The notes: generated from the sequence alone by a model not told the origin. A stretch of DNA of 64,000 nt from Lingula anatina (GCA_051362555.1 JBPQGU010000016.1:124001-188000); one strand, 5' to 3'; counted from the stretch's first letter, positions 8,982-62,970 are shown. Program-made: numbers and translations.

Positions 8982-9243
8982 ATGGGAATCTCAGTTGAGG
9001 CATGGAGGCTGAGAATAGGTTGTTTTACACACTCTTCCTCGGCCAGCAGTGAAGATGACCCTCACAGAAACAGCCACCGGAAACGAAAGTGTAGAACCAC
9101 AAATCATGATTGTGTAGCCAAGGTCTTGCCTGTTGAACAAAATGAGGAGTTGCCCAGTGCCCTAGGGGCTAAAAGATTGAAAACAGCCTCTCCTAGAAAA
9201 TCCTTTGCACAGCAGTTATGCGCTTATATTCCAAATCTCAGAG
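8982..9243 (+). CDS. First coding exon of the HELZ2-like gene (leader MGISVEAWRLRIGCF..., basic clusters HRKRKCR and AKRLK)
   Basis: Acceptor ttacag at 8944, ATG at 8982, donor AG|GTAATG at 9244 (phase 1), which matches the phase-1 acceptor of the 2A exon. Confidence 0.7.
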
Positions 9244-21200: not shown

Positions 21201-21834
21201 TCAAGTATGGTGACCCACTTTAAAGTTTGCCATCTAGTAATCTCCTTAACTGAATAGATTCCCATTGGGGATTACGCAACAAGTATTTAAGTGAGGCGGC
21301 CATATTTATTCCACCGACTACATAGTCCACTGTTGTGAATGAGGCCTTAGAGCACATTCAGAACAGTGAACTAACAGCTAGGTCCACAGATCAGATATGG
21401 TGACCCACTAAAAAGCTTGCCACTAACTTCTCGATTAGACATTGAATAGATTCCCTACTGGGATTATGCAACAAGCATTCAAGTGGATCGGCCTCATTTG
21501 ATCCACAGATCTGTTAGGGCCATTCAGAAGTATGATGGCTGATGATCTGAGTACTAACTGATCTGTCGACTAAATATGGCCAACCCGACTACAAAAGCAA
21601 TGCCGCTGATTCCTGATGGTTTCCCCACCTCCACACACGCCATTAAACGTATCAAATCTCGGCTCCAAGGTTTAATTGCTAGGCCCCTGCAGTGATGGCA
21701 CATGTGGATACAGGGAGACCAACATGGAATTAGCAGCATTGCTTTTGAAGTGGGGTCTCCCATATTTAGTCGGTGAATCAGTTACTGGTAGTACTTTGAT
21801 CATCTTTTCTGAATGGCCCTTTAATTTGCTTTTT

Positions 21835-21885
<51 letters not shown>

Positions 21886-39800: not shown

Positions 39801-42800
39801 ACTAGGTGGTGGGCACCACAGTGGCGCATGGCAGGCAGGACACCATGTTATTTGCACCACTAGATGGTGGGCACCACAGTGGCACATGGCAGGCAGGACA
39901 CTATGTTATTTGTACCACTAGATGGTGGGCACCATAGTGGTGTATGACAGGCAGGGCACCATGCCTTCTGCACCACTAGATGGTGGGCACCATAGTGATG
40001 ACAATATGGCAGGCAGGATGCTGTGCACTGGGCACCACTAAATTGGAGTGATATTTTGAAGTACAGCAAGGAAGGCCTTAAAGTGACATTTTTGATTTTG
40101 GAAGGAGTAAGGGAATTAATTGAATTTTGAGATTACTTTTTAATAAGATTGTGAAAAATAAAATTGGTACAATTTCAGTTCTTTGATTTAGGCTTTTTTC
40201 CATAGAAATCCCCATACAGTGAATAGCAACTGTTATCTAATCATGAGAATATAAATTAAAAAGTAAGTGACTCTTATTCAAGGCATTGTGAAGATGGAGA
40301 AACCTGTTTGTACTCTGGGGTTGAGGACCATCTGAATCTCTGCCCGTTTGCACATTCTGAAGAGGAACTTGGTGAATGGAATCAGAGAGCCGCACAGAAA
40401 GATGCCTTGAGGAATCTTATGAAAGAGACCAAAGTTTATCCCTACCTCAACCAGGTTTATGAGGATTACTTAGCAGTGAAAGATACAGAAAAAGAAAAAA
40501 ATTTAGTAAGCAAAGCTGATTTTATATTTTCTTCAATACAACAGCTAAAAAAATAAAAATAAATAAAATAAATAAATAAAACCGAGTTATTTGCAGATCA
40601 CTGTCTACCAAAATACCTTCAGGGATTGAGACAACAGGTGTTATGATAGTTTCTGCCTGTAGTGAACTGTCAGCAACTCCCTCTACCATTATTGCAATTA
40701 CATTGCTTTGAAATGCATAAAGACCCATTATTTCATTAGAAAATGATATTTAGAAAACCAAAATATATACATAAGGTAAATTCAGGCTTTACCCCATGCC
40801 ATAAAACTTTACAAGATGCATCTTATTCATTTTGGTAATTTCTGTCTTGCATAATCCATTTTACACCTCATTGTGGTTACATTGTTTCTGATAATATTTT
40901 TAGATTGTGTATGATATGAAAGGTATTGACATCACACCAAATCCACAGACAGAAGATGGCAAGCAACTTCTTCACAAACAGTTTCAAGATAAGATAAAGA
41001 ATGATAAGGGTTACACATTTACTGTCAAAGTAGATACCAGCAAAGTGGTAAGAACTGTAATATTTAGAATCTGCATTTGTGGTATACTTGTGTTTGTATA
41101 CATTTTTAGTAATCTGTGGCACTTCATTTGTAATTGGTGTATTTATTTTCCCTATTTATTGCACCACCAGTGAGAGTGGAGGGGGGTACCATAATTTTAC
41201 CTCCTAACTACCAGCTATATGTAAAAAAAAACAGGAAAAAAGAAAAATTGCTTAGTAGTATCAAAATTTATCCATTTCTAGGATCTGACACTGGAGAGAG
41301 CTTCTCTTTTACTGTTCAAGCACAGAGATCACTTTGGTATAGAGACGGATGGAGGTGACACTGTGCAACTCATCGCTGGAGACTCAGTGTGCAGCAATGT
41401 GGATAACAATACATATGAACTCCGAGTGTTGTTTAAGACCTTCATCTTTGGAACCTTTGAGCAAATTTTGTTACTGGACTTTGGTCAGAGGCCTTTTCTT
41501 GGTGTTTCTTTAAAAGTTGATGTTGGTACTGAACAGGTGTTAAGGAAACTTTTTAAAGTAAGAAAGTTGAAGCAAATGCCAAGAGATCATGTTATTTCTG
41601 ATTACATCCCTTGTGCTAGTAATCCAACTCCTCTGCAGGAAGTTGTGGGAAAATATTTGGAAAACACTTGGGATTCTTCTTATAACTTAACATCACTTTT
41701 TGATAAGAAAGAGTTGAATCGTCATAACTATGTCGGTGTTATGCATCAGCTGCTGATAGAAGAACAAAAGGAGCAGGCTATCCTTGTACAGGGGTATGTA
41801 TGCCCCCATGAAATTAAGGTTTTCTAAAAATGAGTTACTAAGATAAAGAGCATTTTTATATCAAAATTTGGTAAATTTTATAGAAAGAAGTAATTTGTAT
41901 TTTGCACCTCATGTCTCTCTGGTTTTTGGTGCTGTTATATTGTTTATGATAGTAGTTGATCTAGATCTGCAAATTGAACAATGTCAAGTTAATGGTGGAA
42001 ACATAAGTTGATGCCCATTGTTACTAACATGAATGTCATTGATTTGAAAAAATCAGGATTACCCATTTATTTCTTGCAGTTGTAGAATAAAGGCAGGGAC
42101 CGAAGTCATGACACATCTCCCTCCTTCTCTCCACCACATCAGAACAGACAAACACCTCTTTGCTAAAATTACCATGGATGAAAACCTTCTTCAGTTTGGC
42201 AGGGAAACTGTGGAGCTGCTCCTCACTTCAGTTAGCCGAGGTTATATTCAGCTGGTTACGTCTCCAAGTTCAGAGTTTTATGAAGTAGAGGTGTTGAACT
42301 ACCAAGACTTTATAGACAGAGGTCGAACTAGAGACTCCATCTATCTTGCCTTGTCCGACCAGTGTTGCCAAGATCTGCCTTTGATCCCAGACACCTGTAC
42401 ATATTTGACAGTGCAGTTCAAGTTAGATGTGACAAATTTTCAGCTTATGCACTTAGCCCTGGAAAGACTTGATGCAAATCTTGATGTTTTCTTCCCTGAC
42501 TACACTCTTGATCAGCCAATGAGGGACTGCCTACCTGGGGAATTGAAAAAGTAAATATTCGTATACATATACCCCTACCCTGTCTAACGCAATACTTTTC
42601 AATCAATATCTTTCAGTTAAATGCACCAACATATACCTAGATATTATGATGTTTTGTTTGCATTTATTTTGGAAGAAAACTTGGGATCCATAGATTTCAA
42701 TTGTTTGCTAGTTTCTTCAATCTCCCTTTCTAACTCAATAGTTTTCAATCAATATCTTTCAGTTAAATGCATCAACATATACTTAGATATTATGATGAAT

Positions 42801-44301: not shown

Positions 44302-47300
44302 TTTTTGTCAATTTATAGGATACATGGTCTGGAAGAGAAAAAGTTAGATATATTAAAAAATATACTTTCTGAACCAGTGGGGGATTTGCAGATTCCACCT
44401 ACCATTATTCTTGGTGCATTTGGAACTGGCAAAACATATATTCTGAAAGAAGCAGTGGCACTGCTGATGAAAGATACTTCAAAAAGAGTCCTGATATGCT
44501 GCAAGTTCGATAGGTATTTAATTTTATATCTTGTAATATTTATGAGTACTTTTCTCATTACAGTAGAAGACGGGCAAAATTTCAGGTGCAAAACTATCTG
44601 CAGTTTTGTTTTGACTTTTGTTGTAGATTTGCCTAATTCAGCCATTTTTCTTTTTATACATGTTACAGTATAAAGATGAATAGTGGAAAACAAAATTGTC
44701 AGTAATTTACTTTGTTTAGCCATTGATACTGGAATATTACAAAAATAAATCCCTAGGAAAATCCTGAACTAAAGTTAATGAGACAGTTAAAGTACCAAAT
44801 ATCTAAATTATATTCATAAATTAATAATAGTGATATATAGTTTTAAAGAATACTAGTTTCAGGCTTATATTTTTCTTACTATGATTTTGCCTTTTTTTCT
44901 CCAGTGCTGCAGATCTGTATGTGTCTTTTATTGAACACAAACTGATGGAACACTCCAAACAAGCAAGCAAACGTGACCATCCTCTGAGAATATATGGAAT
45001 AGAGAAAGAGAAGGGTTACAAGGATGTCAAGTACTCAGTTTGTACCAGGCCATCGCAAAAACAGCTTGATAGACATAGGATTATAATAACAACACTGTCT
45101 GCATCCATGCTGTTAAAGTTTGGACCTTCAAAGGCACCGGTTTTTACCCACATTTTCATCGATGAAGCAGGACAAGCATTAGAGCCTGAATTGGTTATGC
45201 CTCTTTCACTTGCTGATCCCAAAACTGTTGTTGTATTAGCTGGAGACAATAGACAACTACTTCCAAAAATATACAGCAGAGTTGCAAAGGACCAGCATTT
45301 TGAAATGTCCCTGCTACAACGTCTCTTTCACCTCAACCTAAAGCAAATGAAAGAAAAAGCTCCAGAAGCAGCAGCAACTGCAAAGAGTGGCAACCAACAT
45401 GTGTTTCATCTCACAATTAATTATCGAAGTACACCAGAAATTTCGCAATTTCTTGGGCAGACATTTTATCAAGGTCATCTTCATTGTGCTGCAGAAATTG
45501 GATCAGATAAAGGTGTTCCTCCTCTCTCATTTTGGGTGACAAGAGGTGAGGAGAAAAGGTCTGGAGCGTCCTACTACAACATACCTGAGGCCAAAGAAGT
45601 GATGATGCGAGTCCAGTACCTTATTGAGAATGGTAAAATTAAACCATCCAACATGGCTGTTGTAACTCCCTATGAAGGGCAGGTAATAATGTAATATGTG
45701 TATGATTTTGTTTCCTTAGTTGTATAATCAGTGATGTTTAATACAGGTTAACAATGTTTTTTTCAGTCCAGAAGCTACATGTATATTTTAGAATATATCA
45801 CAATTGTTTCTTGGTCCAACTCACAATAACTGTTTGTTGATCCTAGTAATTACTGACTGGCAATTACAGTTCAGTTTTGGGCAATACAGTGGAAATGCCT
45901 CAAGTTGATTGGTGCAATATTAGATTCTTCTACAACACATTTTCAAAGGGCTTGATTAGGTTGTTGAAATTCTGAACTTGTAGTCTTGGAGTTTTTAATG
46001 TATTCAGTACCAGTTTATTGACCTGTTTCAGCATTAGATTTTGCTTAAAAAAGAAAGAAAGAAACATGTTTTGTCTCATTTTTATTTTCAGATGCTAGTT
46101 ATGTCAGAAATGCTGGAAGAGAAAGGACTAGGTGCTGTCAAGACAGAAATCGTTGAAAACATTCAGGGTATTTATCAAATAATATGACTATACAGTAGTG
46201 AATGACCTAATTCAAAGAAATGTGATATACATGTATACAGCAATGCCTCAATTTTTTTCAATGGGTGAACATAACCAATTTTTCAGGTACATAATTTTAA
46301 AATCACAAAATTAATAGAAAAGAACTATATAGTAACTTGCTTTTTAATTTGTTGCTACCTCTCATTAGGAATGTTCTAATTTTAAGACATTACGTATGAC
46401 TAAAAAAATACAATATCTGTAACATTTACACTTCCACTCATTGAAAAGATCTGAGTCTGAGTAACTACCATAGTTCTGAGAACAGTGCTTTAGTCACAGA
46501 ACTGCATAAGGTGATTTGTAAGCTTCTAAAGTAGTTTCATTTTCTGTCAAAAGTGTTTTTTGTGGGTACTATTTGAATATATGACATCCTGATAGAATTC
46601 AATATTAGTAAGGCATTTGAAATTAATCAGCAGTATTTTACCTTAGAAACATTTTGCTACTAGGTTATGAACAAAGTTTTTTTTCTCTGTTTCAAGAGTT
46701 GATCTCATGGTATAAGTCTTTTTAAATAATCTGCAGGCAAACTGTCAAAGGGTGATTATTCTAGATCTTATTTTGAAAAGATTAACATAAGATATGAAAT
46801 ATTATTTCTACTAGCTGTAAGATTACTTTGACTTGACATCCAGCATGTTGGGTCTCACCATGGAACATTTTGTATTACAGGTCTTGAGTTTGATGCAATA
46901 ATTCTGAGTACAGTACGAACTTGTAGTGGTGAAACTTCTAGTGGTGCTTTGGGATTTTTGGAGAACAGTCGTCTTCTCAATACTGCCATGGGAAGAGCAA
47001 GGAGGCACATTTTGGTGGTTGGGGATCCTTTCACTCTTTGTAGCATTGGATCATGTCGTACTATATGGAAACACTACATTGATGAATGTAGGGTAAAAAG
47101 TTCATTGTATCCAGATATTGGGTGTGAGATTGTTGAAGAGATTCTTGGTAAAGATTACCAACGTCTGGAAGGCACAGAAAATGGAAAGGAAACTGTAGAA
47201 CATCATGAAACAGCCAAAAGCATCTGCACAGATACGACTGCTAGAGATTCTGGTTACAGTTCAGTGACTGGTTCTGGCGATTCAGAATGTACCTCTGAAA

Positions 47301-50300
47301 TAGACTCAGACAAAGATGACGAATTAAGTGATGAAGAAATCTTCAAAAATTTAAAAAAGCAATGGAAAGATGATGAACAGTTTGTTTCCAGTAAAGAAAT
47401 ATCTTATATCCAAGATGAAATCCATTTTGAGAGAGATGGATATCTTGAAGATGAACATAGCACCAATACCCTACATGATATGAAATTGGATTCATGGTTG
47501 TATCAGACACATAGATATGCCAGGGGTGCAGATGATGAAGAAATGAATGAGGGTGAGGCAGAAGATGAGGATGATGTCAGGGATCTCAATGAACATTTCT
47601 ATGATTTCTTTGTCAAAGGCATAGACCAAAAAGAAAACTATTATGAACATCTTTCAAAGATTGAATTGATGGATATGTTGAAAAGGGAGCCGAGCAAGTT
47701 TAAGATCTGTACTCTTAACATAGAGAGTGCACAGAAAGGGTTTGCAGTGCCCATTGAAAGAAATGAACCAGTTCCCAGGATAAATCTCTATGGTAGAAGC
47801 AACTGTGGGATGGCTTTTGATAAAACTGAGGTTGTTGTAAGGCTCAATAATCCCCCAACATCTGACAAAATCAACTTGGACACCGATTTCCATGGAAAAG
47901 TAATAGGGACATGGAGTCAGGTAAAAGTCAGAAAGTTTACAAAGTTTGTATGTACAGTTGATGAATTCAGAATAGATCTTATGAAACCTTTAAACAAGAC
48001 AGTACCTAAAATACATGTGATGAACCCTACAGGGACTGACAACAGAATTGCAGTTTATTCATCAGACAAAGATGGGAGACTAAATGTCAAGAGATGGGAA
48101 CCAGTAGACCTCCGACTGAGAGACAGCAAGGTTTTTGTGGTCAGGTGTTTGAAGTGGTCCCCTGTCTTCCAGTATCCACTTGGATATGTTGTAAAAGTTT
48201 TACCTGCTGGCACTGACTTCACAAATGCCCAGGAGATATTGAAAATCCAATACCAGTTGTCTCAGAAATTCCCAGTAGATGTTGAAAAAAAGAAGCGAGC
48301 CCTCATGAGAGGTCTCTCAAAGAGATCTCAAAAAGTTCCAGAAGATGAAGAACCCAAAACATCCCATCTTCCAGATGACTTTTTCACAAATAGAGAGGAT
48401 TGTAGGCAGCTCCACTGTTTTACAATTGACCCAAAGGACTCCGAGGACTTAGACGATGCACTATCAGTGGACTTTTGTGAAGATGATACTGTGAGAGTTG
48501 GAGTTCACATAGCTGATGTGTCGGCATTTGTTGAACCAGGGGATCCCATAGATCAAGAGGCAGCTTTACGATCTAGAACCTTTTATCCTGCAGAAATGCC
48601 AGATTCAGACGAAAGAAGCCACCCTGAGAAACCATACCATATGCTACCTACTGAACTTAGCACCAACTTCTGTAGTCTCTTAGAGGGGAAGGACAGAGTT
48701 GCAATATCAGTATTTTTCAAATTTGATAAAAATGGGAACATCACCATTGGCAGCAATATTGATGACCTACCTGGTACGCCAAAAATTAAAAGGACAGTCA
48801 TACGATCAAAAAGGCAGTTGTCATACAAAGATTCAGAGGACATTCTCAGGGACTCTGAAAAAGAGATGGGCAGTTATCTGACAGACAGTTTAATCTTTCT
48901 GCACAAAGCAGCAGAACATTTACGCCACAATCGTCTCAAAGAAGCTGCAAAATTTGTGCATGCTGATGGCAAGGAGTCACCTATGTCAGAGCGAATCATT
49001 GGAGAATTCATGATTTTGACAAATGCAACAATAGCAAAAATTCTGACTAAAACATTTAGATATGTACCTTTACGAGTGCACTTTCCACCAGATAAAGAAA
49101 CTCTAGCTGATTGGCAAAACCAGTATGGTGCCATAGCAGAACTAACATCTTATCTGAGTCATTATGTGAAGGAACCGCAAACTTCGCCAGAGTTCATTAC
49201 AGTCAGACAACAAACTTGGCAGAAGATGATCAGTCTTGCGGAGAGCACAGAAGGGCTGTCAGATCTGAAGAATTGTCTTGCATCTGAGGAGGACTACCCA
49301 ATGCAGTTCTGTGCCATGGCAGCTTGGTTTGATGTGCAACGACCAGCACGCTATGTCATCTCAGACCCAAATGATTCTGATGCAGACTATTCTCACTTTG
49401 ATTTGAATGTCCCCATTTACACCCAGGTCTCCTCACCGATTCGCAGATATATGGACCTCATTGTCCAACGTCTGCTCTGTGACATGTTGGATGGAAAAAC
49501 AAAACCAACTGAACCTTCGTACAACAATTTGGAAAGTATGCAGCAGATTTGTTTGTTGTACAACGAGAATTCACTCAGGGAAAAAATGTTCAGCAAAGAC
49601 TGTAAAATTTTGAAAATAAGTCTGGAATTGCAAAAGAATGGCCAGGCATTGTACTCACCAGTTGTCACAAAAATTGAAGAGTCTTCTTTAGCATTAAATA
49701 ATCCAGCCATGTCTTACCTTCCAAGAAAGTATTCCACTATAAAATATGGAACCCTGGGTTTAATGGATGTCCCAGTTCGTGGACAATACAATGATATATG
49801 CTTCAAATGGTCCAAGAGACTTTACAACAAAGAATATGAGACGGCCAAATCAACATTTTTACCTTCCAAAATGGAGAGGGATTTCAAACTGTATCCATTT
49901 CAAAGTGAGGTTTTAGTGCCAATTGACTGTTGGATTAAATTGCAAAATACTTCATTTTGGTTTTCAGACAAATTGAAAGGTACGTTGCATAGCATACAAG
50001 AGTACAATTATAGAAAACAAGAAGCATATCCTAGTTATGTGTCTGGAGACATGTTTGTACACGAGCAGACAAGCAAGAAGGGCAGTCACGGCAAATCTCT
50101 CGTCCTCCCAGAATGCAAATTAGCATTACACTTAACAACAGGAAATGTGTTGGAAACCCTGATGTATTCATGTGTTGAGATGGGGAAACTGAGACCTTTT
50201 GTGAGTTTACTTGGCATTACTCCGCACTTCAAAATCTGCTTGTCACATAGGGAGGACCCAGTCAAAATGTTTTCAGATCCTCTGGCTGCACATCCATTGA

Positions 50301-53300
50301 TGGACAAATATGCAGGAATTGAACATTACCAGAATGTGATTCTTCCAGTCCTGGCAATAGAGTCTGCAGCCTGTGCTGTGGCCAATGATGAAGCTGTTAC
50401 TATCCAAAATGTAAGCATTGTGTGGGAGGCAAAGGAGACTGAAAACAAAACTGTATACTATGGAACATTTACCCTTGGGGATTTATTTTGTGAAGAGCGT
50501 AATATTGAGTTCTTCCATGAGGAAACTGATTCCAACTTGGAAGAAGATAACGAAGTGATTGTGGACTGTGGACAGTATGGTGATTATATCTGTGTAATCT
50601 ACACCAGGATGAACAAATCTGAGGAGACAAAACACTCTTCTTTCCCATGTACCAGTATTGCCAAATGCGACCCTATTTGGTGTGGCCATGGTCTATTGAT
50701 CACAGTAGGAAAGAACAAGAGGGTGTTGTTCAGATTACTTGGTGAGAATATTCCAGGTGCCATTCTTGAGCAAAGTGATAGTGAAGATGGAGATTTCAAG
50801 TGCTGCGTGGAAATAATCCAGAAGACCCTTCCTAACAGGTACATGAAATCATCCATCCATTTTCCACCATGGCTAGATATGTGTATTCTTTCTTCATTGT
50901 GACAATTGCTGAATATTTGTTTCAGAATTTGTCAGAAACCATTAAGCCATACACCTTGCCTAGATATTATTGAATCCACTTCTTTTAATTTCTTTTATAA
51001 ATATCTGTATTTGTTCCATCTTTTATGTTTAGTTTAATGTTATTGTTGTTTTATGTTTTAAGACGCATGGAAGGAGCTGTGCATGAATTAGCCAAAGCCA
51101 CGGATCTTGCCCAGAGCATAGCCATTGGAAACCTATTACCTGAGGATTCTAAACCCGAAGCTTGTAAGCCTCATTCATAAATACATACACCAACATTAAT
51201 TTTTACAGCAAAAATACTTCAGAATAATCTTGGAAATTTATACACACTTCCTTTCATAATACTTATGAAATATGTGCAATTTGAGGATTACCTTTTCAGG
51301 ATACTGTTAGTGTTTGCCAAAAATTCAGAATCCTTATTTACTGCCTTAAATTCTTTTGGATAACAGATAAATCTTCAGTGTTCAATAACTTAATTAATTA
51401 GCATTTACACACATCATCTTACAGTTGACATCATAATTGCAGTTTTAGGGTAAAATTGGAAGAATTATAGTTTCTCAAATACCTGAGCACTTAAGAATAC
51501 TGTTTGAATGCCAATTAAATGGTACCATTTTGTAATCTAAAACTTTTCTTGAAACCCTTAGTTCAGATTTTACCATTGATAAAACAAAATAATGCCCTGG
51601 CTTAATGAAAATCTGTAATCAGGGGCTCATCACTCCATAACAAAAGCATTTAAACCTGAATGATGGCATGGTATTGAAGCCTATACACTTGCTGTCAACT
51701 CTGCCAATGTTCCAGATAAAATCTTTTCTAAAGATGAAGTTACACTCCATACCGATTGCTTCAATAAAAGGAAAGTGGGAAATTGATGATCAAGAGAATT
51801 AATTAAATTTGAGACTTATGTGATGTATTTATGGTATTATGTTTTTTATTTTAATTTCACTTTTTCAGTGACTGGCCCAAGCATGGAGGAGTTCATAGAC
51901 AGAGAAAATAATTTTTTGAAAAGATACTTGCCTCGCCTCAATGAAAACCAGGAAAAAGCTGTATGCCAAGCTCTCTCAAGACCTTTTACACTTATTCAGG
52001 GCCCTCCAGGTTTGTTCTCTTTGCGAAATTATCTATAGTAATTACAGTCACTGTGGTGCTTTCTTTATAGCTACAACTGACATCAGTGTTATTTGAACTT
52101 AATTATTTCTAGTATTCATGAAACAAGGGCCTCCAACTCTTGGGGGATTTAAGATAAGGTTTGCTTTTCTGGGTGTTGGATTCCGATGCGAAATCATCGT
52201 GCATGTGACAAAATGGTAGATGTTGACCAAAATGTCATGATTTACTTAATTATTATTTAGTCTCTAAGTAAAGAATAATTCTGTTTTATATAGCAAAAAT
52301 CAGAGCCTTTACATGTGGCATGCGGGATGCATATATGTAGTGGAGTTCAAGTAATGTCTGCTCTTAGGTGGTTATAGTAGAAACAGAGTGCATTAATAAC
52401 AGAGCTGAAGATATTCTATATGTCATATTTAGAAAAATTGAAATGGATGGGTAGATTAAAGATAGAATAAAAATTCTATGAATAACCATTTACTCAAGAA
52501 ATATGGCTAGCTTTTAACAGAATGGGGATAAATATGAATATAATAATATGCTTAACTTATCTTGGATGCAGGTACAGGGAAATCGTGGACAGGGATACGG
52601 ATTGTATACCTTTTTGTGAAGTGGAATGAGGCAACAAGAAGTGGGTCGGACCCAAAGCAAGTACTCTATTGTGGACCGTCAAATAAATCTGTGGATGTGG
52701 TAACAGGTGCATTTATAAAAAGACACATTCTTTCCAGATAAAGAAGTGGATCTTTGTACAACTTTTTGACACTACAGTTATTGTCTCTGATGAAATGTTT
52801 CTTTATGCAGAGTTTTTAGGAAAAAATTCAATTGATAACTTTGATATTTTAGTCTGTTTGATTTTAAGAGATATACCAAAATTGTTTGTGGCACTTTAGG
52901 TTTGCTGAAGAAGAAGTTCAACCCAAGGCTGTACAATAAAGATGATCAACGACCGTCAGTTTGCCCTAAGATTGTCAGAGTATATGGAGAAAATGTTGTT
53001 CAACGAGAATTTCCTGTCCCTCTGGAACAAACAAACAAAAGCGAAAGATCTACAGATTCCATGCAGCATTCGGAACATAGTGATGTTGCTCTTCACCACA
53101 TAATAAGGCACCATACCAACCCATATGCAAAACAAATAAAAAAATATGATGCTGAATTTGGTAAATATTTCAAAAATCCAAAGAATTTTGATGCAAAAAG
53201 ACTTGAAAATGATATGAGGAGATATAGAGATTTGGTGAGCAAAGCAGAGGAGCATGAACTTCGCCACCATGATGTGGTGCTTTGCACATGCTCAGTGAGC

Positions 53301-56300
53301 TCAAGCTCAAGAGTGGTCACAGTAACCAACTTTGAACAGTGTATAGTGGACGAGTGTGGAATGTGCATAGAAGCTGATAGCCTCATCCCAATAGTTTCTT
53401 CAAGAGCGAGACAGGTAATAAATAATGATCAAATAATAGTAAAGAAAATTCTAATGTAATGTTTCCCATTGAAATCTTGTTGCTTTCCACCTTAAAAAAT
53501 GATTGAACAGTGTAAGAATATTATTTTAGAAAGGCAGAATTTGAAAAATAACATGTAAAATTAAAGATGGAATTATGAAAAATGTAAAAAGAATATGTCT
53601 TTAATTTCAATTTTGTTAAATCCCTTAAAATTTGGCTATTTATCCCAAAGGTGGTGCTTATTGGAGATCACAAGCAACTTCGACCAATTGTCTTGAGCCA
53701 AGCAGCAAGAGATCTTAGGCTTGAGACTTCTTTGTTTGAGCGTTATGCAAATGAGGGCAGGGCCATCATGCTGGACATCCAGTATCGTATGGTAAGGGCT
53801 ATTAAAAATATTTCTAAACCATAGAAATTGTTTCATTATTTTGATATGTTTGCTCTACTTTCAGGGATGTTCCTTGGTCAAAATCTGTTTGGGCCATTTT
53901 GGCCCACTTTGTCAAAAAAGTGGTCCATTTTTATTAAAAAATGTCTGCCATGAATTACATAGTGACTATTTATTTTATTTCAGTATTTTTATTTGATTAA
54001 AAACACTGAAAAACGCTTGATGTTACCACTCTGAAGTTCTTAATGATTGTAATACGTGGAAAATCGTCAAAAATTAACAATTGTACTGTCCGAATAATTG
54101 TACTGAATGGAAAAATCTTTCAAAATCAATACTTGTGCTGTGCCAAATAATTGCACTGCATGGAAAAGGTTTGCAATGCCCATATTTATTGTGTTAAAAA
54201 AGCCCTTGCTTTGAAAAGATTTTTTTTCAAAATATTTGCATTCTTTTTAACCTGAAAATAATTAAGCACTAATCTAAACTGAGAGAAGCCCATCTTACAT
54301 ATATCTGTATTTACATAAAATCTAGCAAGCAACTTTATAACATCACTAAAATGAGTTGGCTTATCTGTAAATGAATTTATATTTATTTATTTATTTGTTT
54401 ATTTTTTGCAGTAGAGGAATGTTAAAAAATGTATTTAAGCTGCATATTTGAGTTATTTCATATATGTATTTTTTCAGCATAGAGACATAGTTGAGTTTCC
54501 TTCTCAAGAGTTTTATTCTGGAAACTTAAAGACTGGACATAGTCAGGAAATGTATGAAGATGAAGAAAAGAGTCTTGGCAGATATGTCTGGCAAGGAAGC
54601 AAAAGGTACAGGTTTTGCCATGTGGAGGGGAAGGAAGAGACTTTAGTTGTTGGAAACCCAGATGGCGGAGAACAGTCGAAAAGAAATGAGGAAGAAATTG
54701 AGCATGTGGTAAATTTTATTTCAGACTTCATCAGGCTTGTAGAAAAAAATGTGCACCAAAAATACACTGTTGATGAAAAAAATTTCCATGAACTAGCTTT
54801 TCACTTAGTTTAAAACAAAAGATGAATTAATAAGATTGTCAGTCAAATTGTAATAGAAAGCTAAGGCTTAAAGACAGATATGCCTATCACTGATACAGAA
54901 ACTAAATAAGATGTTCAGTCTCTTGAAATTTGTGCAAGCTCTTTTTGAATACTTGCATAACTTTTTGAATTTCAGTCATTTTTTTCTTGTTTTTAAACAA
55001 AAATCAAATGGTATGGTATTTGGTTTTTATATGACTTGCTCTATTTCTAAGGTCAGATTATACAGAACATTTGTGAAAGGGTTCAATATATCAAAGAAGA
55101 GGGTGATAGTATTGTCCCAGTACAGAGCTCAGGTGTCTCGTGTGCAGGACGTTCTTAGTGATGAGTTTGGCCGTGGAGTGAATGTCAGAACAGTGGTTCA
55201 AAGTCAGGGTATGTATTGTGATGATGACATTGATGAGTTACATATGATGTCTTTGATAACTGAAGGTATAACTTTAAGCTCACCATGAGGAACAGTAATG
55301 ACTCCATCTTTTCAATGGGCAATTGCAAGTTTGTTGCAACCACTCAATAGGAATTTTTAATTTTAAGAAATTTTGACAAAACAGGGGCGGATTCAGAGAT
55401 ATTTTTTGATAGTCTTCCAAATGATCTTTGTTGCTTAATTCTTCATTTTTGACCATCTTCCGACAGAAAAAATTAGATACTTGTCAATGTAAACTTGAAA
55501 ATCTGACCGTTTTCTGGAAGACCCAGAAGATGACCTAAATACGCCCCTGTAAAAAATACAGCATCTGTAAAATTCACAATTTTCCTCTATTGAAAAGATC
55601 AAGTCATTACCATACATGTGATGTATATGACAACAGTAAGGGAGTATTCTGATTCAGACATTGTACCAGCAGGATCAATTCAACTTTGCGGGGATTCTGG
55701 CTGAAGTGCAGACAGTGTAATCAGCTCAATTGTCTGGCAAGCAGTGAGTTACATACAATGTCTATGATAACAGTATGGTATTGCTTTAAGCTCACCATGA
55801 GTTAGGTATTATATGTGTGATAACAGTAAGGTATAGCTGGAAGCTCACCATTAGTTATGTACAATGCATGTGATAAGTGTAAGGTATAGCAATGAACTCG
55901 CCATGAATTGCATATAATGTATATAACTGGGTTCCCATACTTAGATCAATCTAACAAGATCAATCCATCTCTCCAGGGGATTTCTCATTAAATTGTTTTT
56001 AGTTAAAGCTGCTTAGATGTCTGAAGCTGCTAAACGATAATTAATTACCCCCTAGCAGCTTCAGTAGGCATGACAGACATCTTAGCTGTTAAAGTTGATG
56101 CAATTTAGCAAGAATCCCCTTGGAGATAGATTGATCCACAGTTAGTATGAGAGGGTCTGGGAATGTTCCCTATGGCCACATTAATTTTTAGATAGGAAAC
56201 TAAAATGTGGCTTTGAGATAATCCAGATAAGGGGTTAGGAGTGTGATTGTTCACATTTTTTTAAAGTAAACTATTGCAAGAAAACTAACTTTACTTGGAA

Positions 56301-57677
56301 AGGAGACTATAGCAGACATGCTGAAACCGTCAGTCTGATTGGTCATGACTGGCAAAATTTGTACGGCCTGTTAAAAATTGGAAATGGTGGGCCCATACAA
56401 CCAGTAAGAGTTTTCACAGCCACCATTTTGAATTTACAGTCATCATTCGACATACTTCACTAATAAAATTATATAAAGCCCAAAGCATTTTTCCCTTCCA
56501 TTTCAAACTGACCACATTCACAAAGTAAGCTACCTAATTGTAGTCTCCGTCTCAAACAAATAGGGTGATTTTCAGTCCGGCAAATTTTTCATTACTGCCG
56601 GTCCAAATGTCGGGCCATTCTGAAAAGTTTTCCAGATGTCTGCTATAGACAAAAGCACTGCCTTCCAGCAAGTTGTGTTGTACTTGAGCAAAGAGAGGCA
56701 TAGAATTTTAAGTGTGTTATCCAACTTATGACCTGTCCTAAACCTAGTTAGGTTTGACTCAAAATGTTTGTCACTACAACTTAATAGGTCTAGTGTAGAA
56801 TGAATGTTGTAAGCATGTCCCCCTTGTAAGTTCAAATGTGGCTGGTGGTACCTTCTTAGTAGGCAATATTCCCTTTCCATGCCTTAAAGGTTTTCTATAT
56901 GGGATTTACCCACCAAATGAATAATGTAGACAAAGATAAGCTGACATTGAGAAAAATTCAAACATACATAGGATAACTTTAAACAGTTTCAAGAGAAGTT
57001 TTGTCATTTTGCAGGAGGAGAGTGGGACATTGTGATATTTACTACAGTGCGTTCCTTGCCCCAGTACCAGATAATCAAAAATCCAACGCAGGGATGGTGC
57101 CGAAAGAGCTTGGGCTTTATAACAGATGAACATCAAATTAATGTCGCACTTACAAGAGCCCGCAAAGGACTGATCATCATTGGTAACAATTTTTGTAATA
57201 AATTTTGTCAAAAAATAGATCCTAATTTAGGTTAGATAGTGAGTTAATGAGTAATTGTCATCTTATTCTAAAATGTTCAAGGTAACTTTTTTAAGAAGTG
57301 CATGCATGTTAAGAAAAGCTTGCTGAAATTGTTGATGCAATTTTATGCACAAAATTATACATGTCAAAAATATTTTTTGATTATGTATTTAAAAATTACT
57401 ATTCAAGCATTCTTTTCAAAATATTGTATGCCAGTTTTGTTCAAATTGAAAAAAATCTGCATATGAGTGCCATTAATGTAGGATTAATAGTTTAAAAAAC
57501 TGATTTTGGAAAGGCACACTGTAAAATTAAAGACATAATATACACTTTTCCGTTATAGGAAACAAGAATTTGTTAGGTTGTCATCCCGTGTGGAATAGGC
57601 TGTTACAGCATTATAATGATCAGAATGCTGTTGTCAATGCTGAAGATTTTTTGCGAGATGGAATAAAAAGCAAGTAG
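8982..57677 (+). CDS. HELZ2: HELZ2-like helicase with zinc fingers, about 3747 aa: 2A leader - TPR - CCCH/C2H2 ZnF - SF1 helicase - RNB - SF1 helicase (33 coding exons)
   Basis: Hand-built GT-AG exon chain with all phases compatible, total 11244 nt: 8982-9243, 21027-21136, 22201-22232, 22426-22474, 22932-23138, 23430-23472, 24308-24420, 24694-24894, 25398-25452, 26508-26683, 27373-27492, 27833-27872, 28288-28358, 28921-29098, 36222-37454, 39105-39393, 40283-40505, 40904-41047, 41282-41793, 42080-42550, 44319-44513, 44905-45682, 46092-46167, 46881-50838, 51063-51163, 51869-52009, 52572-52706, 52900-53414, 53651-53791, 54478-54708, 55052-55208, 57015-57182, 57559-57677 (TAG). The helicase-RNB-helicase order is the HELZ2 hallmark. 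The 5' small exons are less certain than the 36-57 kb part. Confidence 0.85.
9877..11125. mobile_element. Non-autonomous hAT-like DNA transposon with apparent 6-bp TSD
   Basis: TIR CAGTCTGCG...CGCAGACTG flanked by CAAAGA on both sides; several sub-terminal ACTAGCCC/GGGCTAG motifs at each end. Confidence 0.7.
11933..16644 (-). mobile_element. HINE family A copy 3, nested in inverted orientation inside copy 2
   Basis: Both termini are present. It splits the host unit gataagtt|aaaaaccgtttt with no TSD. 14092-16644 closely resembles 4009-6618. Confidence 0.8.
12503..12685 (-). mobile_element. Small HINE-like element of a third family nested in copy 3 (related 3' end near 7520-7561)
   Basis: AACTAG...GACCTCTGCCAAGG at one end and CCTCCTTGGCAGAGGT at the other; the 7520 region ends ccttggtggaggtctgcgc...ttctagtt. 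Confidence 0.5.
19163..19591 (+). pseudogene. THAP zinc-finger N-terminus of a truncated transposase
   Basis: CCMYNC...FLVFPKD...LWI...KVCGCHF...DAVPS fits the THAP C2CH pattern with AVP box; no DDE domain follows. Confidence 0.75.
20130..20824 (-). pseudogene. Fragments of a YqaJ/lambda-exonuclease-like transposon ORF
   Basis: KHSYSTQVQGQMAVYNIHEYDFVLCTEKDLFIESVMFDAVHWASVVPKLTSFY matches the YqaJ C-terminal pattern; the reading frame is broken. Confidence 0.7.
21027..21136 (+). CDS. Exon encoding a hydrophobic tract plus 2A/StopGo motif (YLSAGLRLLLLIGLLLLVAGDVEANPGPITTPGSEQ)
   Basis: gga gat gtg gag gcc aat cca gga ccc at 21086-21112 reads GDVEANPGP, an exact D(V/I)ExNPGP match. Acceptor ttaaag|GG at 21026; donor CAG|GTTTGT at 21137 (phase 0). 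Confidence 0.85.
21163..21822. mobile_element. Cluster of three palindromic MITEs (related copies at about 612-795, 22535-22715, 38455-38725)
   Basis: Shared cores gatcaaatatggc...gccatatttgatc and cattcagaa...ttctgaatg inverted ends. Confidence 0.6.
22932..27492 (+). CDS. TPR-repeat region of the HELZ2-like gene (7 exons)
   Basis: TPR-pattern helices: YLERGKEPFKRGEFDVAAEHLSRALE, VYFNRCFCYQMM-GEGHYLMALKDLHKAI, KAHFYRAQCFCKSKMFKEAKEAIDTALQL. Splice sites are canonical. Confidence 0.75.
31690..32270 (+). mobile_element. Degenerate 3' end of a CR1/L2-group LINE
   Basis: Broken frame resembling an RT C-terminus (KITESSDKLNHIF...VPQFKTDRF*CSFIPYAL), followed by a UTR ending AATAAA(TTA)n. Confidence 0.6.
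34730..35790. repeat. About 145-bp tandem array (about 7 units, TGACCTT-rich)
   Basis: ctggcagagat recurs at 34764, 34910, 35056, 35201 and 35344. Confidence 0.9.
36222..37454 (+). CDS. Exon with repeated ZC3H7-like CxxC/CCCH zinc-finger units
   Basis: Three units such as FDLCVNIKSSNRCFRGKECTYAHSTMEKLLW, YQRCAKGICTDGDCPKAHFDIERDVW and DLCKAH...KKCKYPHSKEEKILW, each preceded by a CxxC (ACSSC, VCRKC, ACRKC). Confidence 0.85.
37537..38354 (+). mobile_element. HINE family A copy 4 (short, about 4.5 x 161-bp units)
   Basis: Same hairpin and GTC microsatellite at the 5' end, same CTTTGCTGCCTTGTT 3' end. Confidence 0.85.
39105..40505 (+). CDS. C2H2 (U1/matrin-type) finger plus CCCH finger, two exons
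   Basis: FYCKYCYKECNSKIQLERHFSSQKHK, then FKLCKR|HCEDGETC...CPFAHSEEELGEW across the 39393/40283 junction (phase 2). Confidence 0.85.
39476..40040. repeat. 58-bp GC-rich intronic minisatellite (about 9-10 units)
   Basis: Unit ggcaggcaggacaccgtgccttctgcaccactaggtggtgggcaccacagtggcgcat; central copies are identical and flanking copies diverge. Confidence 0.92.
42590..42880. repeat. Two-copy direct duplication of about 146 bp
   Basis: ttttcaatcaatatctttcagttaaatgca at 42596 and 42742. Confidence 0.75.
44319..47100 (+). CDS. SF1 (UPF1/DNA2-NAM7-like) helicase domain 1
   Basis: Walker A GAFGTGKT, motif II DEAGQ, AGDNRQL, NYRS, ENIQG|LEFD, NTAMGRAR. Confidence 0.92.
46881..50838 (+). CDS. 3958-nt exon: end of helicase 1, acidic linker, cold-shock/OB-like region and RNB 3'-5' exoribonuclease domain
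   Basis: RNase II family motifs FTIDPKDSEDLDDALS, VGVHIADVS, IGEFMILTN, YTQVSSPIRRYMDL. Confidence 0.93.
51869..57677 (+). CDS. SF1 helicase domain 2 (8 exons)
   Basis: LNENQEKAV, IQGPPG|TGKS, YCGPSNKSVD, VDECGM, IGDHKQL, IQYRM|H, QSQG|GEWD, INVALTRARKGLIIIG|N. Confidence 0.92.
55926..56172. mobile_element. Palindromic MITE (related copies at about 2868-3085 and 29185-29410)
   Basis: gggttcccatacttagatcaatctaac...ctccagggga / tcccttggag...gatcc fold-back structure seen three times. Confidence 0.6.
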
Positions 57678-58089
57678 ACATTTTATTTTTTAATTGTAGT
57701 GGAAAATTAAAGTGAATTAATATATATGTTTAATTGAATAGAGAGATATAACTGCTGTGAGGTATCAGAATTTTTCTTCCTAACTAGTTACCAAGAGATT
57801 TGGATGTCCCTTGTAAACATAATTAAAACGAAATAGAGATAGAGATAATTGAATAATGTGTTTGAGCTTTTGATTTCCCCATACTCCTTTTCACTCCTAA
57901 TGCACTTGATATGTCTTTTTAGCAAACTTTCCTTGTATTGGACTCATACAAAAGAAAGGAACTGAAGAAACCCTACTGGTGACTTGATTTGATAATTTGC
58001 ATATCAGATATTTCTCAATATAGATAGAGAAAGAGATCCTACCTGCAGAAAAAGTAATTCATACTCAATTTTTATATGTATGCTTTTAG

Positions 58090-61000
58090 GTACTGAGTTC
58101 TACAAAAATTTAGCACCCAGGATGCAAAGACAACTTGATGTGGGAACATTTTACCAGGATGATGGTTTTTATGATGAGAGCGGTTACAAGGAAGAGAGTG
58201 AGGAAGAGGAGGACAGTACACCCATTGGGGATGATGGAATTCAGTGGATTGCCATACATCCAAAAGGTGCAGTAATTGTAATTATACATGGTGGAATCCT
58301 GTCTTTATGTGACACATGTGGAGTGTGGTATACAAGATCTGAACTGAGCTTTCCTTTTACTTAAATTACATTAAAATGTTCTGCATGTTTTGTTGCATTT
58401 TGCAGATTTTGTACAAATACAATTTGACAGAAAATAATTTTTTGTTAAAAATGATTCCATAAATTCCATATATATATGATTTAATTTTTTTGAAATGTTG
58501 CAGGCAAAAGACAAAGCCAAAGCTTTGTCCCAGAAGAGAAAAGAATGCCAGAATCCTTGGCATCGCCCCAGATGACAGCCGATGCCTCACAAGGCAGTAA
58601 GCAGATAGATGTGCTGAAAGATACATATTTGAGGAGGTTCTCCATCACTCCAGAAGGTGGACATGTTAATCTGAAAGAAGTTGGAGTATTCCTCTTAGTG
58701 CCTGCGGGAGCCCTGGCTGAAACTACAGAAATGTTCATTGGTATTAGTTGGAGAGAAGAAGACATGCCACCGCTGCCACCATGTCAGACTAGAGCAAGTC
58801 CAGTTGTTGTCTGTGGCCCACATGGTCTGACCTTCAGAAAACCAGTGTTCCTGTCATTTTATCACTGCATATCAGGCACCCGCCACAGAAAGATGGGAAG
58901 GAGCTGTCCTGAAAATTTGACTCGGGATATCAGAATGAGCAATTCATTTTACATTTGGCAGTCGCAAACTCATTTTCATGAAACCTGCCAGTGGAAAGTA
59001 TTGAGCAGAGATTCTGTTGTGTTGACAAATACCAAGTGTATCTTGATGATGAACCAGTTCTGTAAACACACTTCGTCATGTGACAGTAAACGCCTTTGTG
59101 CTTTGGTGTTTGGGTCATTTAAGCATCAACATGTTACCCTGCTGAAACTGAAGGTGTACTGTGTAAATGACACCCCAGATGAAATAAAGGTAAAACTCCA
59201 TTTCTCCTAAAAGAGTTTTTTTTGTACAGACATACAGACACAACATGTTATAGTGTACATGCACAGTGTACTGGCCATCACCTTTCACCTACCTGTCGTT
59301 GTCATTATGCCCTTTCTACTGGCAATGCAATAAATGGATAACTGACATGCACCTCAATCCTAAAAAAAAAAAATCATGATACATGAAAAACAATATGAAT
59401 TATTATCTTAAATTTTACCTGACAACAACATATTTTATGCACTGTAATTGTAAAGCTTTTTTCTGCTATATGTCTGTACACTTGTTAACTTTGCTGTCTT
59501 GTTTGTGATAAGTTAATTTCTATGTTTTGTGATTTATTTAATAAAAGTTATTACTAGTGGCCTTTTTTGGAACGTAATTTCATTTGTTAATATTTGTTGA
59601 GATTGGTTCTCTCCCTGTCTCTTTCAGACACTCTGGTAAACTTACTTTTTGGTTGAATGTTTCAGAATGTCACAGCGGAAGCCAAGGAAGATTTGCAAAT
59701 GGAAAAGCTAGATGCAAAAAAAAAATTCAAATTTTTCACTTGTGGGTACAGTGAGAGCAGTGCTGAAGAAAAGAAGTCCTATGATGTCAGTCTTCTGTTG
59801 GAAGGTTTTGAGACAAAATGGAACATGCATGAAGATTCTCCGCAAAAGGTTGTTTTTTTAATGAGTTATATCTGAATTTAATGCTCTATCTTGTAAAATT
59901 TAGATATGAACACTAAAGACAAGGAGGCCCTTTTGTTCCAGAATCAACTTATAAAGTGATGATCATGGCAGATTGCTGAAAATTCCTTATAAGTTTTAAG
60001 AATATGCAAGAAAAAAAGATCGAGAGAGAGAGTTATTATTTTGAAAAGTCACTTTTACATTTCAGGTTATGGACTATATAAGGTTGTGTGAGAACAATGA
60101 AGAAAACATAACATTTTCCCTTTGCCCTAAGGAGAAAGAAGAAAGTCTTGATGTGTTTGTTAGTAAAATATATGTAAAACAGGAAGGAGTAGATCAGGAA
60201 AGGGATGTCAGACGTATTACATCCACTGAGCTTGACATCCACTGGATGTTACCAGTAAGCTTGTAAAAGGAAACTACTTGAGTTACTCAAATGTGATGAA
60301 GCATTATCATATTCTCAGTGGGAATGTTATTTTCTTTGAATAATGTTATAATACCAATTCATGATGTAATAGGAAGTGTTGCTCTCTTCAATAAACTGTG
60401 TTGTGTTGATTAATTAATGGTTGGACCTTCCCATAATATGTTAGTTATTAATACTGCTATTTGTGTAATTACTACTGCTTACAATTTTTTTCAGGTTGGT
60501 CCCACTATGGACAATTATAATTTTAGTAGTTATTCTGGTGGTCTGGAAAGTGTAAGATCGGCTCCACAATTGCCAGGTGGTGAGATGCAGAGACATGGTG
60601 GCAACCACGTTCAATCAATACCAAACCAGTTCTATAACCTGCAAGACCAATACCAACAGATTCAGCCAGGATTCCAACCGGTTATTGGCAACCAGCGGGA
60701 TGACTTCCAGTCTCAGACAGCAAGGAAGATGGTTGCACAAAGCCAATTCCAACAAAATCAACCAACACCACAACCTTACTTTGGCAACCAGAGGTTTCAA
60801 CAAGGCAACTTCCAGTCTCATACAGTATATGAGACAGCTGGACCAAATCAACCGTATCACCAACAAGGACAATCCCATCATCGTGGACTACCACAGGGAC
60901 CAGTCACTGATCGGGAACAGCAAGGTGATGTCACCTATAAAACTAGTAGGAAATCAGTTCACAAGTCTCCACCTTTACCCCCACAGCAGGTCCACAAGGC

Positions 61001-62258
61001 TGCTGGAGATCAAGACAGTGGTGTTACTGACCCTTATGCCATTACAACAATGGAAAACCCAGTGCCTTACAACCAGGCCCATGGGGGTAATCAGTTAGGT
61101 AGGTTGCCTACAGTAATGCAAGAGATTGTAGGACAAATCCCCTCTAGTACAGGCAGCACAAATATTACAGTCAATTATCAGGTTAACAAAATTTATAGCA
61201 CAGACAAGGAATCCATGCCACATATGAAAGAGGAAGATGTGACAAAATCATTCCGTAAGCATGTCCCTTCAGATGTGATAAAACAACTAAAGGAGACACT
61301 TACTCAAAGAGATGTATGGGACCAAGTGAAGAAGATGTATGGCATTTCAGATGAAATTTCATGCCCTCCGGATGTTATGGATTATTTGTTGTCTCAGGTT
61401 GAGGGTTGTATTGCATCTTTCAACAATGTGCTGTTAAGGTTAAAAGAAGCCCATGCAGAGGGAGAGCAGGACATTCCACAAGATTTGATTGATAAAGTCA
61501 AGGTAATTGAAAATTTGGTCAGATAAATAATGTCTTTTATATTTTAAAATGACAATATATGTTTTGATTTCAGTCATTTTTACGGTATATGCCACATTAG
61601 AACTATTGTCACTCTCTGCGGTATATTAATTTTACCCCTCAGCCAAGTTTTCCATCTCTTCATATTCCAAGTAAAAGAGAAAGAGATAGATTCTGAAGCA
61701 ATTGTATGAGAAAGTGAATTGGCTGTTTGGCATTTTTAAGTATTTTATCATCTGTTAGTTATTAGGCAACATCAAGGTTTGAAGGGTTATAAGTTGAAAA
61801 TATGCCTTATTGTATTTTTCTTCTAGGAGGGACTTAAGAGTGAAATGGAGTACAAGAAACTGAGAGAGAATATGATCGACTTTGCTGAGGACCTTATTAA
61901 TAATTTTGGACGAGTTTTAGATTACCTGTCTCAGTTTAATATAATGTCAAGTGAGGTGAAAGCAAAGCTTAAAAGCAATTTTAGGGAAAGTCCAGAAGAG
62001 GCCTGTAGAAATTTGTTTCAAGTACTCCTTGATATTAGTCCTAAAAAAGAACCAATTAAATGTCTGAGAGCTGCATTCAGAGATTCCACACTTGAGCATC
62101 TGGCAGATGAACTAGAAGTAAGCAGTCAGGATGTAGAGGGTGAGTTACAGGAACACGGAGGGGGAGGTGATCTTCCTTCTTGGCAGGAGCCATTGGCGAT
62201 GGGATTGGAAGCTCCCCCCACATTAGTCATGGGCCAAAGACCTATTGCAGCACATTAG
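58090..62258 (+). CDS. ZU5-UPA-(Q/N/G-rich)-death-domain-like-CARD protein; separate gene (ATG 58122, about 880 aa) or C-terminal extension of the HELZ2-like gene
   Basis: Phase-compatible exons 58090-58266, 58504-59189, 59666-59848, 60066-60254, 60495-61502, 61827-62258. ZU5 signature ITPEGGHVNLKEVGVFLLVPAGAL...SPVVVCGPHGLTFRKPVFLSFYHC; UPA-like start LKLKVYCVNDTPDE; CARD-like KKLRENMIDFAEDL..FGRVLDYLSQFNIMSSEVKAKL...ACRNLFQVL...CLRAAFRDSTLEHLADEL. Confidence 0.8.
59216..59503 (+). mobile_element. Degenerate short HINE family A relic
   Basis: ttttgtacagaca start and tgtctgtacacttgttaactttgctgtcttgtt end; similar relics near 27545-27580 and 43065-44240. Confidence 0.5.
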
Positions 62259-62717
62259 AGAACAACTGTGCCAAAAACATGTTGGCTTCTGTTGCTTTGG
62301 GCCACTGGGGATACAGAACCTAGGCCCAGTTTGATCAATACTGGATAATATTATCCATTGGATAAAATTGTCGTCCTCTTGACAATTACCCTAAGTATTG
62401 CAGCCATAATTTTTGAACACTGGATAGCAATAGCAGAGGCCACCAAAAGCATCCAGCATTTGTGAAGCACATTATTCTAGGATAACTGAAAGCATGTAAA
62501 TCTGATATGTTGATGTCAGTTATAAATATACATAAAACCTACTGTGCATGTTTGCACTAGCAATTAATATAAACTAATATAATGTCTGTATCTGATGCAG
62601 GCTCTTGCTGGACAGGCTTGATATTTTGACTACAATTAAAATGCAGCTGCTGCTGCAGCTTTTTATTATGCAGTCGTGATTTGGAACAAAATATGTGTCA
62701 ATGCATGCACACACATA

Positions 62718-62970
62718 AACATATGCAAGCTGGCACACATATTATTGAAGCTTTTCTAGTCAAACATGTGCAAACTGGCACATATTATTGAAGCTTTTTC
62801 TAGTTAAACATGTGCAAACTGGCACATGCATATTATTGAAGCTTTTCTAGTCAAACATATGCATGGCACATACATATTATTATTGAAGTATTTCTAGTCA
62901 AACATATGCAAGCTGGCACATACATATTTTTGAAGCTTTTCTAGTCAAACATATGCAAGCTGGCACATAC
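62718..62970. repeat. About 40-45-bp tandem repeat downstream of the CARD exon stop (probable 3' UTR)
   Basis: aaacatatgcaagctggcacatatattattgaagcttttctagtc-type unit, about 6 copies. Confidence 0.8.

Follow-up and report, generated by a model that had tools for sequence, protein, structure and literature searches.

A likely fusion of HELZ2 to a ZU5-UPA-death-fold-CARD tail through a GC-AG intron in the brachiopod Lingula anatina

A stretch of 64,000 nucleotides from Lingula anatina (GCA_051362555.1 JBPQGU010000016.1:124001-188000; hereafter the window, meaning the whole stretch) contains a gene that is, by its sequence, a Lingula anatina HELZ2, with two superfamily 1 (SF1) helicases and an RNB nuclease domain, and downstream of it, also on the + strand, exons for ZU5, UPA, death-fold and CARD-like domains. 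Where does the HELZ2 gene end? Helicase and ZU5 exons probably form one gene through a GC-AG intron at 57670-58089, encoding a HELZ2-ZU5-UPA-death-fold-CARD protein of 4636 amino acids; use of the GC junction itself is highly probable, and we infer that the gene mainly makes this long form. The last helicase exon (57559..57677 when read to its stop) starts at 57559, and its frame, as read from the sequence, stops at TAG 57675-77. Just before this stop, in AAAA|GCAAGT, the GC dinucleotide occupies 57670-71 and the donor boundary falls at 57669|57670 in phase 1, while the acceptor AG lies at 58088-89 and the exon beginning at 58090 reads open in the same phase. The predicted intron measures 420 nt, and the gap from TAG to acceptor 412 nt. 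The initial annotation had given the stop, the phase-1 donor at 57670 and the phase-1 open exon at 58090 exactly, together with a separation of about 410 bp and a fused product of about 4636 amino acids, and all of these were recovered when the gene model was rebuilt. From ATG 8982 the fused frame runs through 39 exons and 4636 amino acids without internal stop (4630-4636, varying with two small boundary choices), and the unfused frame reaches the TAG after 33 exons and 3747 amino acids. The 14 upstream exons of this model were placed by homology; from 36222 on, 24 of the 24 helicase and tail introns keep the frame.

The idea that this GC donor could fuse the helicase/RNase to the tail finds its support indirectly, in a fused paralogue, in an identical junction of another gene copy and in RNA read depth; no read across the junction is among the joints listed. 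The paralogue came from a search with the ZU5 exon against 1.84 billion representatives, of which the best 150 of 362 matches were returned; helicase similarity was seen in one of these 150. It shows the combination of RNB, AAA_11/12 and ZU5 that had been proposed as something to look for: P0190 (XP_023931638.1), a 2025-amino-acid L. anatina model with RNB, AAA_11, AAA_12 and ZU5 in one chain, annotated as a single protein and having UPA-like and CARD-like parts as well. It aligns with the fused model in one collinear block, 29.6% identical over 2243 columns and reaching the CARD-like end, and the linker between helicase and ZU5 is 107 amino acids here, via the GC junction, and 106 in P0190. 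Identity between the two is 31% in RNB, 34% in ZU5-UPA and 47.5% in helicase 2, and their helicases are sisters in a quick tree of 39 rows (SH-like approximate likelihood ratio test 89, below the 95 mark). Such equal divergence on both sides of the linker, together with the sister helicases, fits a fusion that preceded an old duplication, and the spacing shared by two old paralogues would be hard to explain as two annotation errors. The second relative, P0105, is a 3968-amino-acid database model of another copy (94% identity) which has identical residues across the junction; its match to the 177-nt acidic linker exon (58090..58266, phase 1 on both sides, open frame) is 94.5% over 55 amino acids.

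The third line of support is RNA read depth. Four of nine same-species runs were mapped on 54900-62700, with depth taken in 261-nt bins, and in all four the depth is zero in 57771-58031, where about 8-24 reads would be expected if a 3' untranslated region (UTR) or read-through crossed it. Neither a long 3' UTR nor a leader left unspliced is compatible with this zero depth. Per exon, the summed depth amounts to 13.7 for the helicase exon 57015-57182, 8.7 for 57559-57669, 4.1 for the linker exon and 13.6 for the CARD exon. Three tail introns are confirmed by listed GT-AG joints, with spliced reads at 59846^60064, at 60254^60495 and at 61500/61502, and reads extend over the 3' UTR after the CARD as far as the 62469-62700 bin or further. 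Before the CARD exon there is a tandem NAGNAG acceptor (61827/61830), and reads back both of its joints, one codon apart. Dispersed repeats within introns at 55300-56700 attract hundreds of RNA reads from elsewhere, some of them biased to the opposite strand in runs X1 and X2.

Could the locus simply be two neighbouring genes? In that case the 3' UTR of HELZ2, after its stop at TAG 57677, would be very short, and ZU5, UPA and CARD would belong to a separate gene starting from a first exon of its own or just before 58090, at a methionine at 58080 or 58122. These two in-frame ATGs, the former within the acceptor tract and the latter within the exon, had been missed earlier, and they permit a stand-alone tail gene. 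GC donors are uncommon, which also counts for separate genes. HELZ2 is complete at the TAG: in 137 of 159 HELZ2 proteins no more than 75 residues follow the last helicase motif, so the end of the short form is the usual one for a HELZ2. Poly(A)-like hexamers stand nearby, AATAAA at 57662 and ATTAAA at 57706, with a T-rich tract 3' of the TAG, and with them the 3' UTR could measure less than about 95 nt, a length that bins of 261 nt cannot exclude. Similar tails are split off in database models, which are inconsistent with one another, P0108 and P0184 splitting what P0109 joins. Nevertheless, two genes are improbable at this locus. The empty interval 57771-58031 is the expected place of a 5' exon or UTR, no ATG of the gap reaches 58090 in frame via either of the better GT sites, 57761 and 57978, and neither the equal-length linker of P0190 nor the unbroken frame across all the introns from 36222 on is what separate genes would lead one to expect.

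The remaining points that weigh against a single fused gene concern the same lines of evidence. P0105 holds translated intron stretches and is therefore a genome-based prediction, not a complementary DNA, and P0190 is likewise a database model, which begins inside RNB. Of the 72 matches from a search for shorter proteins that cross the junction, none is allele-level over it; two high-coverage oyster matches were set aside, as they align through unrelated acidic tails. The tail of the window is far closer to tails found behind Roc-COR domains than to that of P0190, and two independent graftings of a tail onto HELZ2 are thus possible, judging by tail similarity. No read joining 57669^58090 appears among the joints listed (15 of 28), a listing filled mostly by reads from intronic repeats. 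Linker exon depth is about half that of the last helicase exon, being low in runs X7 and X4, read counts are small (a few reads), and the depth of tail exons may include reads from paralogues.

How good is the GC donor as a splice site? It is the top-scoring donor-like site among all GT and GC dinucleotides in 57559-58060, and scores 3.41 bits on a matrix made from the gene's 23 GT donors, whose own leave-one-out range is -3.0 to 4.8. Compared with the ideal U1-pairing donor consensus, it matches 7 of 11 positions, and 7 is also the median of the 23 GT donors. The initial annotation considered the exon-side AAA weak for a GC donor; this worry turns out to be lighter than it was put, since four of the 23 GT donors also lack G at -1 and one of them (42550) has the same exon-side AAA. 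On the other side of the balance, 77 of 2133 GC sites on the + strand of the window score equally well or better, which again speaks for two genes. By sequence alone, then, the junction is suggestive, above chance only modestly, and not decisive.

The position of the donor, over a stop codon and two bases downstream of AATAAA, invites a further reading, compatible with a real junction, in which U1 at the GC donor competes with cleavage at that AATAAA, so that a 3747-amino-acid HELZ2 and the 4636-amino-acid fusion are made in a regulated manner. The hexamer at 57662 and the T-rich tract past the stop, the likeness of the short product to a normal HELZ2 and the drop of depth from 8.7 to 4.1 at the linker exon are in its favour. 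AATAAA is a common word here (1.16 per kb, with 6 in 12.3 kb of exons), and read-through at four of the other 23 donors meets a stop within 3 codons; neither feature of the donor is therefore special. Moreover, no poly(A) end was seen, and the similar depth of the CARD exon and the helicase exon 57015-57182 fits one transcript. Such a switch is thus a tentative proposal, rather unlikely on the whole; nothing found speaks for the alternative use that had been put forward earlier, with a short effector and a long sensor isoform, and it is the long form that more likely predominates. Lastly, the canonical phase-1 GT donor at 57182 might be spliced directly to 58090, as in read-through chimeras, omitting the last helicase exon, with the frame kept and no GC donor needed. 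The end of helicase 2, 37 conserved residues which P0190 retains ahead of its linker, would be lost in this way, whereas exon 57559-57669 has reads and is included in P0105; skipping is accordingly very improbable. The fused gene with its GC-AG intron is preferred to these alternatives in what follows.

The HELZ2 part of the gene is laid out as follows. N-terminal exons, 14 in number, lie in 8982..29098 and were found by tblastn with the N-termini of P0004 and P0105, giving an open frame; a TPR-like helical region in these exons scores E 1.6e-5 to TPR_2 on P0105, below the cut-off. Exon 21027-21136 encodes, near residue 110, a class A 2A-like motif, GDVEANPGP (21086-21112), after a Leu-rich run, and the same motif is present in P0004 and P0105. 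As predicted from the motif, a peptide bond could be skipped there and an N-terminal piece released; this class of motif is described in PMC12338488, of which the main text contains neither Lingula nor HELZ2. A Cys/His-rich zinc-finger region and pre-helicase exons follow in 36222..42550, with a zf-C2H2_jaz match ahead of helicase 1 (39083-39394, E 8e-5, 23.1 bits against a cut-off of 22.6) and 97% identity to P0004. The Upf1-like SF1 helicase occurs twice, each time with Pfam matches to AAA_11 and AAA_12 and with an intact Walker A/B pair: helicase 1 in exons within 44319..46167, continuing into the next exon, and helicase 2 in exons within 51063..57182. Between the two, a 3958-nt exon (46881..50838) carries the end of helicase 1, OB_HELZ2 (Pfam E 5e-19) and RNB (E 1e-66, about 48392-49489); it is 99% identical to XP_013400663.2, a HELZ2 of L. 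anatina. All four aspartates of the acidic catalytic site of RNB are present, the four-Asp site being that described in PMC10516660. In the 39-row quick tree, from which one fragment was dropped, the window helicase groups with HELZ2 homologues of the lophotrochozoan set (support 99).

What, then, does the tail consist of? The initial annotation read it as ZU5-UPA-DD-CARD, DD being a death domain, and of these the ZU5 is clear, the CARD is supported, and the death domain was not recognised in the window's own sequence. After the linker, the exon at 58504..59189 holds ZU5 (about 58638-58883; Pfam E 6e-19, with PDB sequence matches to the ZU5 of ZO-1 and UNC5B) and the start of UPA (about 59085). 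Two UPA-like exons, 59666-59848 and 60066-60254 (59666..60254), are identified by homology to Lingula tails and by spliced reads; in Pfam, UPA reaches only E 0.094. The exon at 60495..61502 encodes a Gln/Pro-rich spacer and then, from about 61248, a helical, probably death-fold domain, and the last one, 61827..62258, a CARD-like domain (about 61857-62120), a short tail and the stop, as judged by Pfam, Atlas and read depth. This CARD has a Pfam E of 0.009, below the cut-off, and an Atlas score of 0.93 to a CARD cluster (198 of 256 features; 58% of members carry the family). For the preceding helical segment, the window's own sequence gave no Pfam, PDB-sequence, Atlas or fold match to a death domain, and its single-sequence fold has a predicted local distance difference test (pLDDT) of 68. 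With a five-sequence profile, a weak alignment to UNC5-type death domains is obtained that keeps the register (P 0.022; 30 of 30 shuffles score lower). Matches of this segment to ezrin/moesin (E 1e-4) were rejected as due to helical composition, as the relatives' alignment gives them no support. An alignment-based model of the relative P0187, with pLDDT mostly above 80 in folded parts, has as its top fold match the cytoplasmic ZU5-UPA-DD of UNC5B (E 2.5e-21, 427 columns); it also matches the FIIND structures of NLRP1 and CARD8 (E 3e-7 and 7e-4) and, over about 200 columns, the tandem CARDs of RIG-I and MDA5 (E 3e-3 to 9e-3). Judging from these models, the tail is ZU5-UPA followed by two death folds, of which the first is probable.

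This tail is a mobile module among Lingula proteins. Its closest relatives are C-terminal modules behind Roc-COR, 71% identical in ZU5-UPA, and the same tail also follows DD-CARD (P0185) and C2HC zinc fingers (P0187). No Roc-COR sequence is present in the window, and a partner of that kind hidden there was accordingly excluded. All Lingula tails tested, together with three unnamed proteins, form one clade (99), within which the window tail branches at the base of the Roc-COR tails (100); from this position, either the Roc-COR genes or this HELZ2 would have copied the tail recently. Among 175 HELZ2-like proteins tested, none has a ZU5-UPA-death-fold-CARD tail, in a set where three Lingula copies are annotated short of the tail, many entries are fragments, and word-based searches missed P0190. 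Several relatives deserve mention for themselves. At other Lingula loci, P0001, P0002, P0109 and P0111 combine Roc-COR with a recent copy of the ZU5-UPA tail (71-75%) and are mostly labelled uncharacterised or UNC5-like; P0111 runs on into an EXS domain and is probably a mis-joined model. Among the other representatives, P0197 and P0229 are NF-kB-like single chains that combine a Rel homology domain with ZU5, UPA and Death, and P0228 has LRR, TIR and ZU5.

At the ZU5/UPA boundary, 59055-59063, the window reads QF/C. In the same column, 67 of 156 aligned relatives (26 rows gapped) have HF[T/S/C], and P0190 has HF/T. CARD8 is cleaved at its ZU5/UPA boundary, and Ser, Thr or Cys can act as nucleophiles (PMC3210808); a Gln in first place has hardly any effect on Nup98 and none on CARD8 (PMC3210808). 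Against cleavage, the motif of the window lacks the His, and three rows of UNC5-type relatives also have Gln there (QLG or QLS). Self-cleavage at QF/C, argued by analogy, therefore has about an even chance, and RNA-triggered signalling is similarly balanced between yes and no. In this reading, the HELZ2 part would bind, unwind and degrade foreign or retroelement RNA, like human HELZ2 on structured RNA, from which the RNA-degrading role is taken (PMC10516660). ZU5 would cut itself at QF/C to yield a 646-amino-acid UPA-spacer-death-fold-CARD fragment, held in restraint as in NLRP1, CARD8 and PIDD1. RNA loading, or cleavage or degradation of the N-terminal part, might then free or cluster this fragment, its release being proposed by analogy with NLRP1 (PMC8679799), and the freed or clustered UPA-to-CARD piece may recruit CARD/DD adaptors and caspases. 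A bolder proposal, to be held only tentatively, is that brachiopods built a third kind of animal RNA sensor, HELZ2 with a self-cleaving ZU5-UPA-death-fold-CARD tail, an NLRP1-like tripwire which is itself the antiviral nuclease and which two old paralogues have kept, and that a GC donor laid over the old stop lets one gene alternate between a nuclease that stays silent and a form that signals death.

Elsewhere in the window, four arrays of a 161-162 bp unit are found in both orientations (5214-6517, 11429-11931, 15595-16537 and 37632-38320), three of which adjoin a short CGA/CGT-rich repeat; a mobile minisatellite-bearing element is likely. Other arrays have units of 146 bp (34746-35693), 58 bp (39484-39997) and 47 bp (62717-62971). 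On the - strand, 798-2228 is a low-complexity open frame of 476 codons with no Pfam match, probably an exon of a divergently oriented neighbour gene. Within the 7-kb intron 29099-36221, a GC-richer stretch at 34380-34545 resembles the start of another transcript or element, and is a candidate for one.

Is such a protein known already? In the literature searched, which does not extend to a study of Lingula immunity by Gerdol et al. (2018) that could describe this gene, no paper pairs HELZ2 with ZU5 or Lingula with HELZ2, and the accessible parts of the literature on ZU5 in Lingula anatina describe no HELZ2-ZU5 protein. The fusion is thus likely real and apparently undescribed, and it is already latent in the public model of the paralogue, XP_023931638.1. 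Provided that the long protein is produced, one chain unites RNA degradation with death-fold signalling, an arrangement reached independently of RIG-I/MDA5 and NLRP1, and HELZ2 would be able to act as a sensor or guarded tripwire, beyond its place as an effector. One ZU5-UPA-death-fold tail on HELZ2, Roc-COR, DD-CARD and zinc-finger proteins within a single genome also offers a tractable example of the assembly of immune receptors in invertebrates.

By its title, a preprint (10.1101/2022.03.26.485892) reports that HELZ2 inhibits LINE-1. With HELZ2, the Lingula gene shares the zinc fingers, helicase 1, OB, RNB and helicase 2, and it differs by the N-terminal 2A-like motif and, in the fused model, by the C-terminal ZU5-UPA-death-fold-CARD tail; in humans, HELZ2 is induced by interferon and acts as a 3'-5' exoribonuclease, its helicase aiding degradation of structured RNA (PMC10516660). 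The initial annotation had looked to RIG-I/MDA5 or PIDD for a functional analogue, and of these PIDD1, together with NLRP1 and CARD8, stands closer by its ZU5-UPA-death fold, and RIG-I/MDA5 less close. NLRP1 and CARD8, in which FIIND (ZU5-UPA) precedes a CARD, have the same order of sensor, ZU5-UPA with a candidate self-cleavage site, and C-terminal CARD, and human NLRP1 binds double-stranded RNA and signals through a released UPA-CARD (PMC8679799); here, however, the sensor part is an RNA helicase/nuclease (no NACHT or LRR was matched by Pfam in 16 window frames or in P0105), the site is QF/C, not SF/S, and a spacer and a helical domain are added before the CARD. PIDD1 and the UNC5/ankyrin supramodule place a death fold after ZU5-UPA, as is probable here, whereas the Lingula protein has one ZU5 (PIDD1 has two), no LRR, no membrane part, and two helical domains instead of one DD. 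RIG-I and MDA5 have an RNA helicase coupled to tandem death folds, as the fused model probably does, but here the helicase is SF1, not SF2, the death folds are C-terminal in place of N-terminal CARDs, and a nuclease is built in; no common descent is implied. Grafting of domains onto RIG-I-like receptors is known in Lingula (PMC8998645). In brachiopods and cnidarians, TRADD-N is fused to RNases and RNA helicases, the brachiopod fusions including Mov10 and DDX60 (PMC8195603), so that an enzyme of RNA defence is likewise joined to an apoptotic adaptor, although the adaptor differs.

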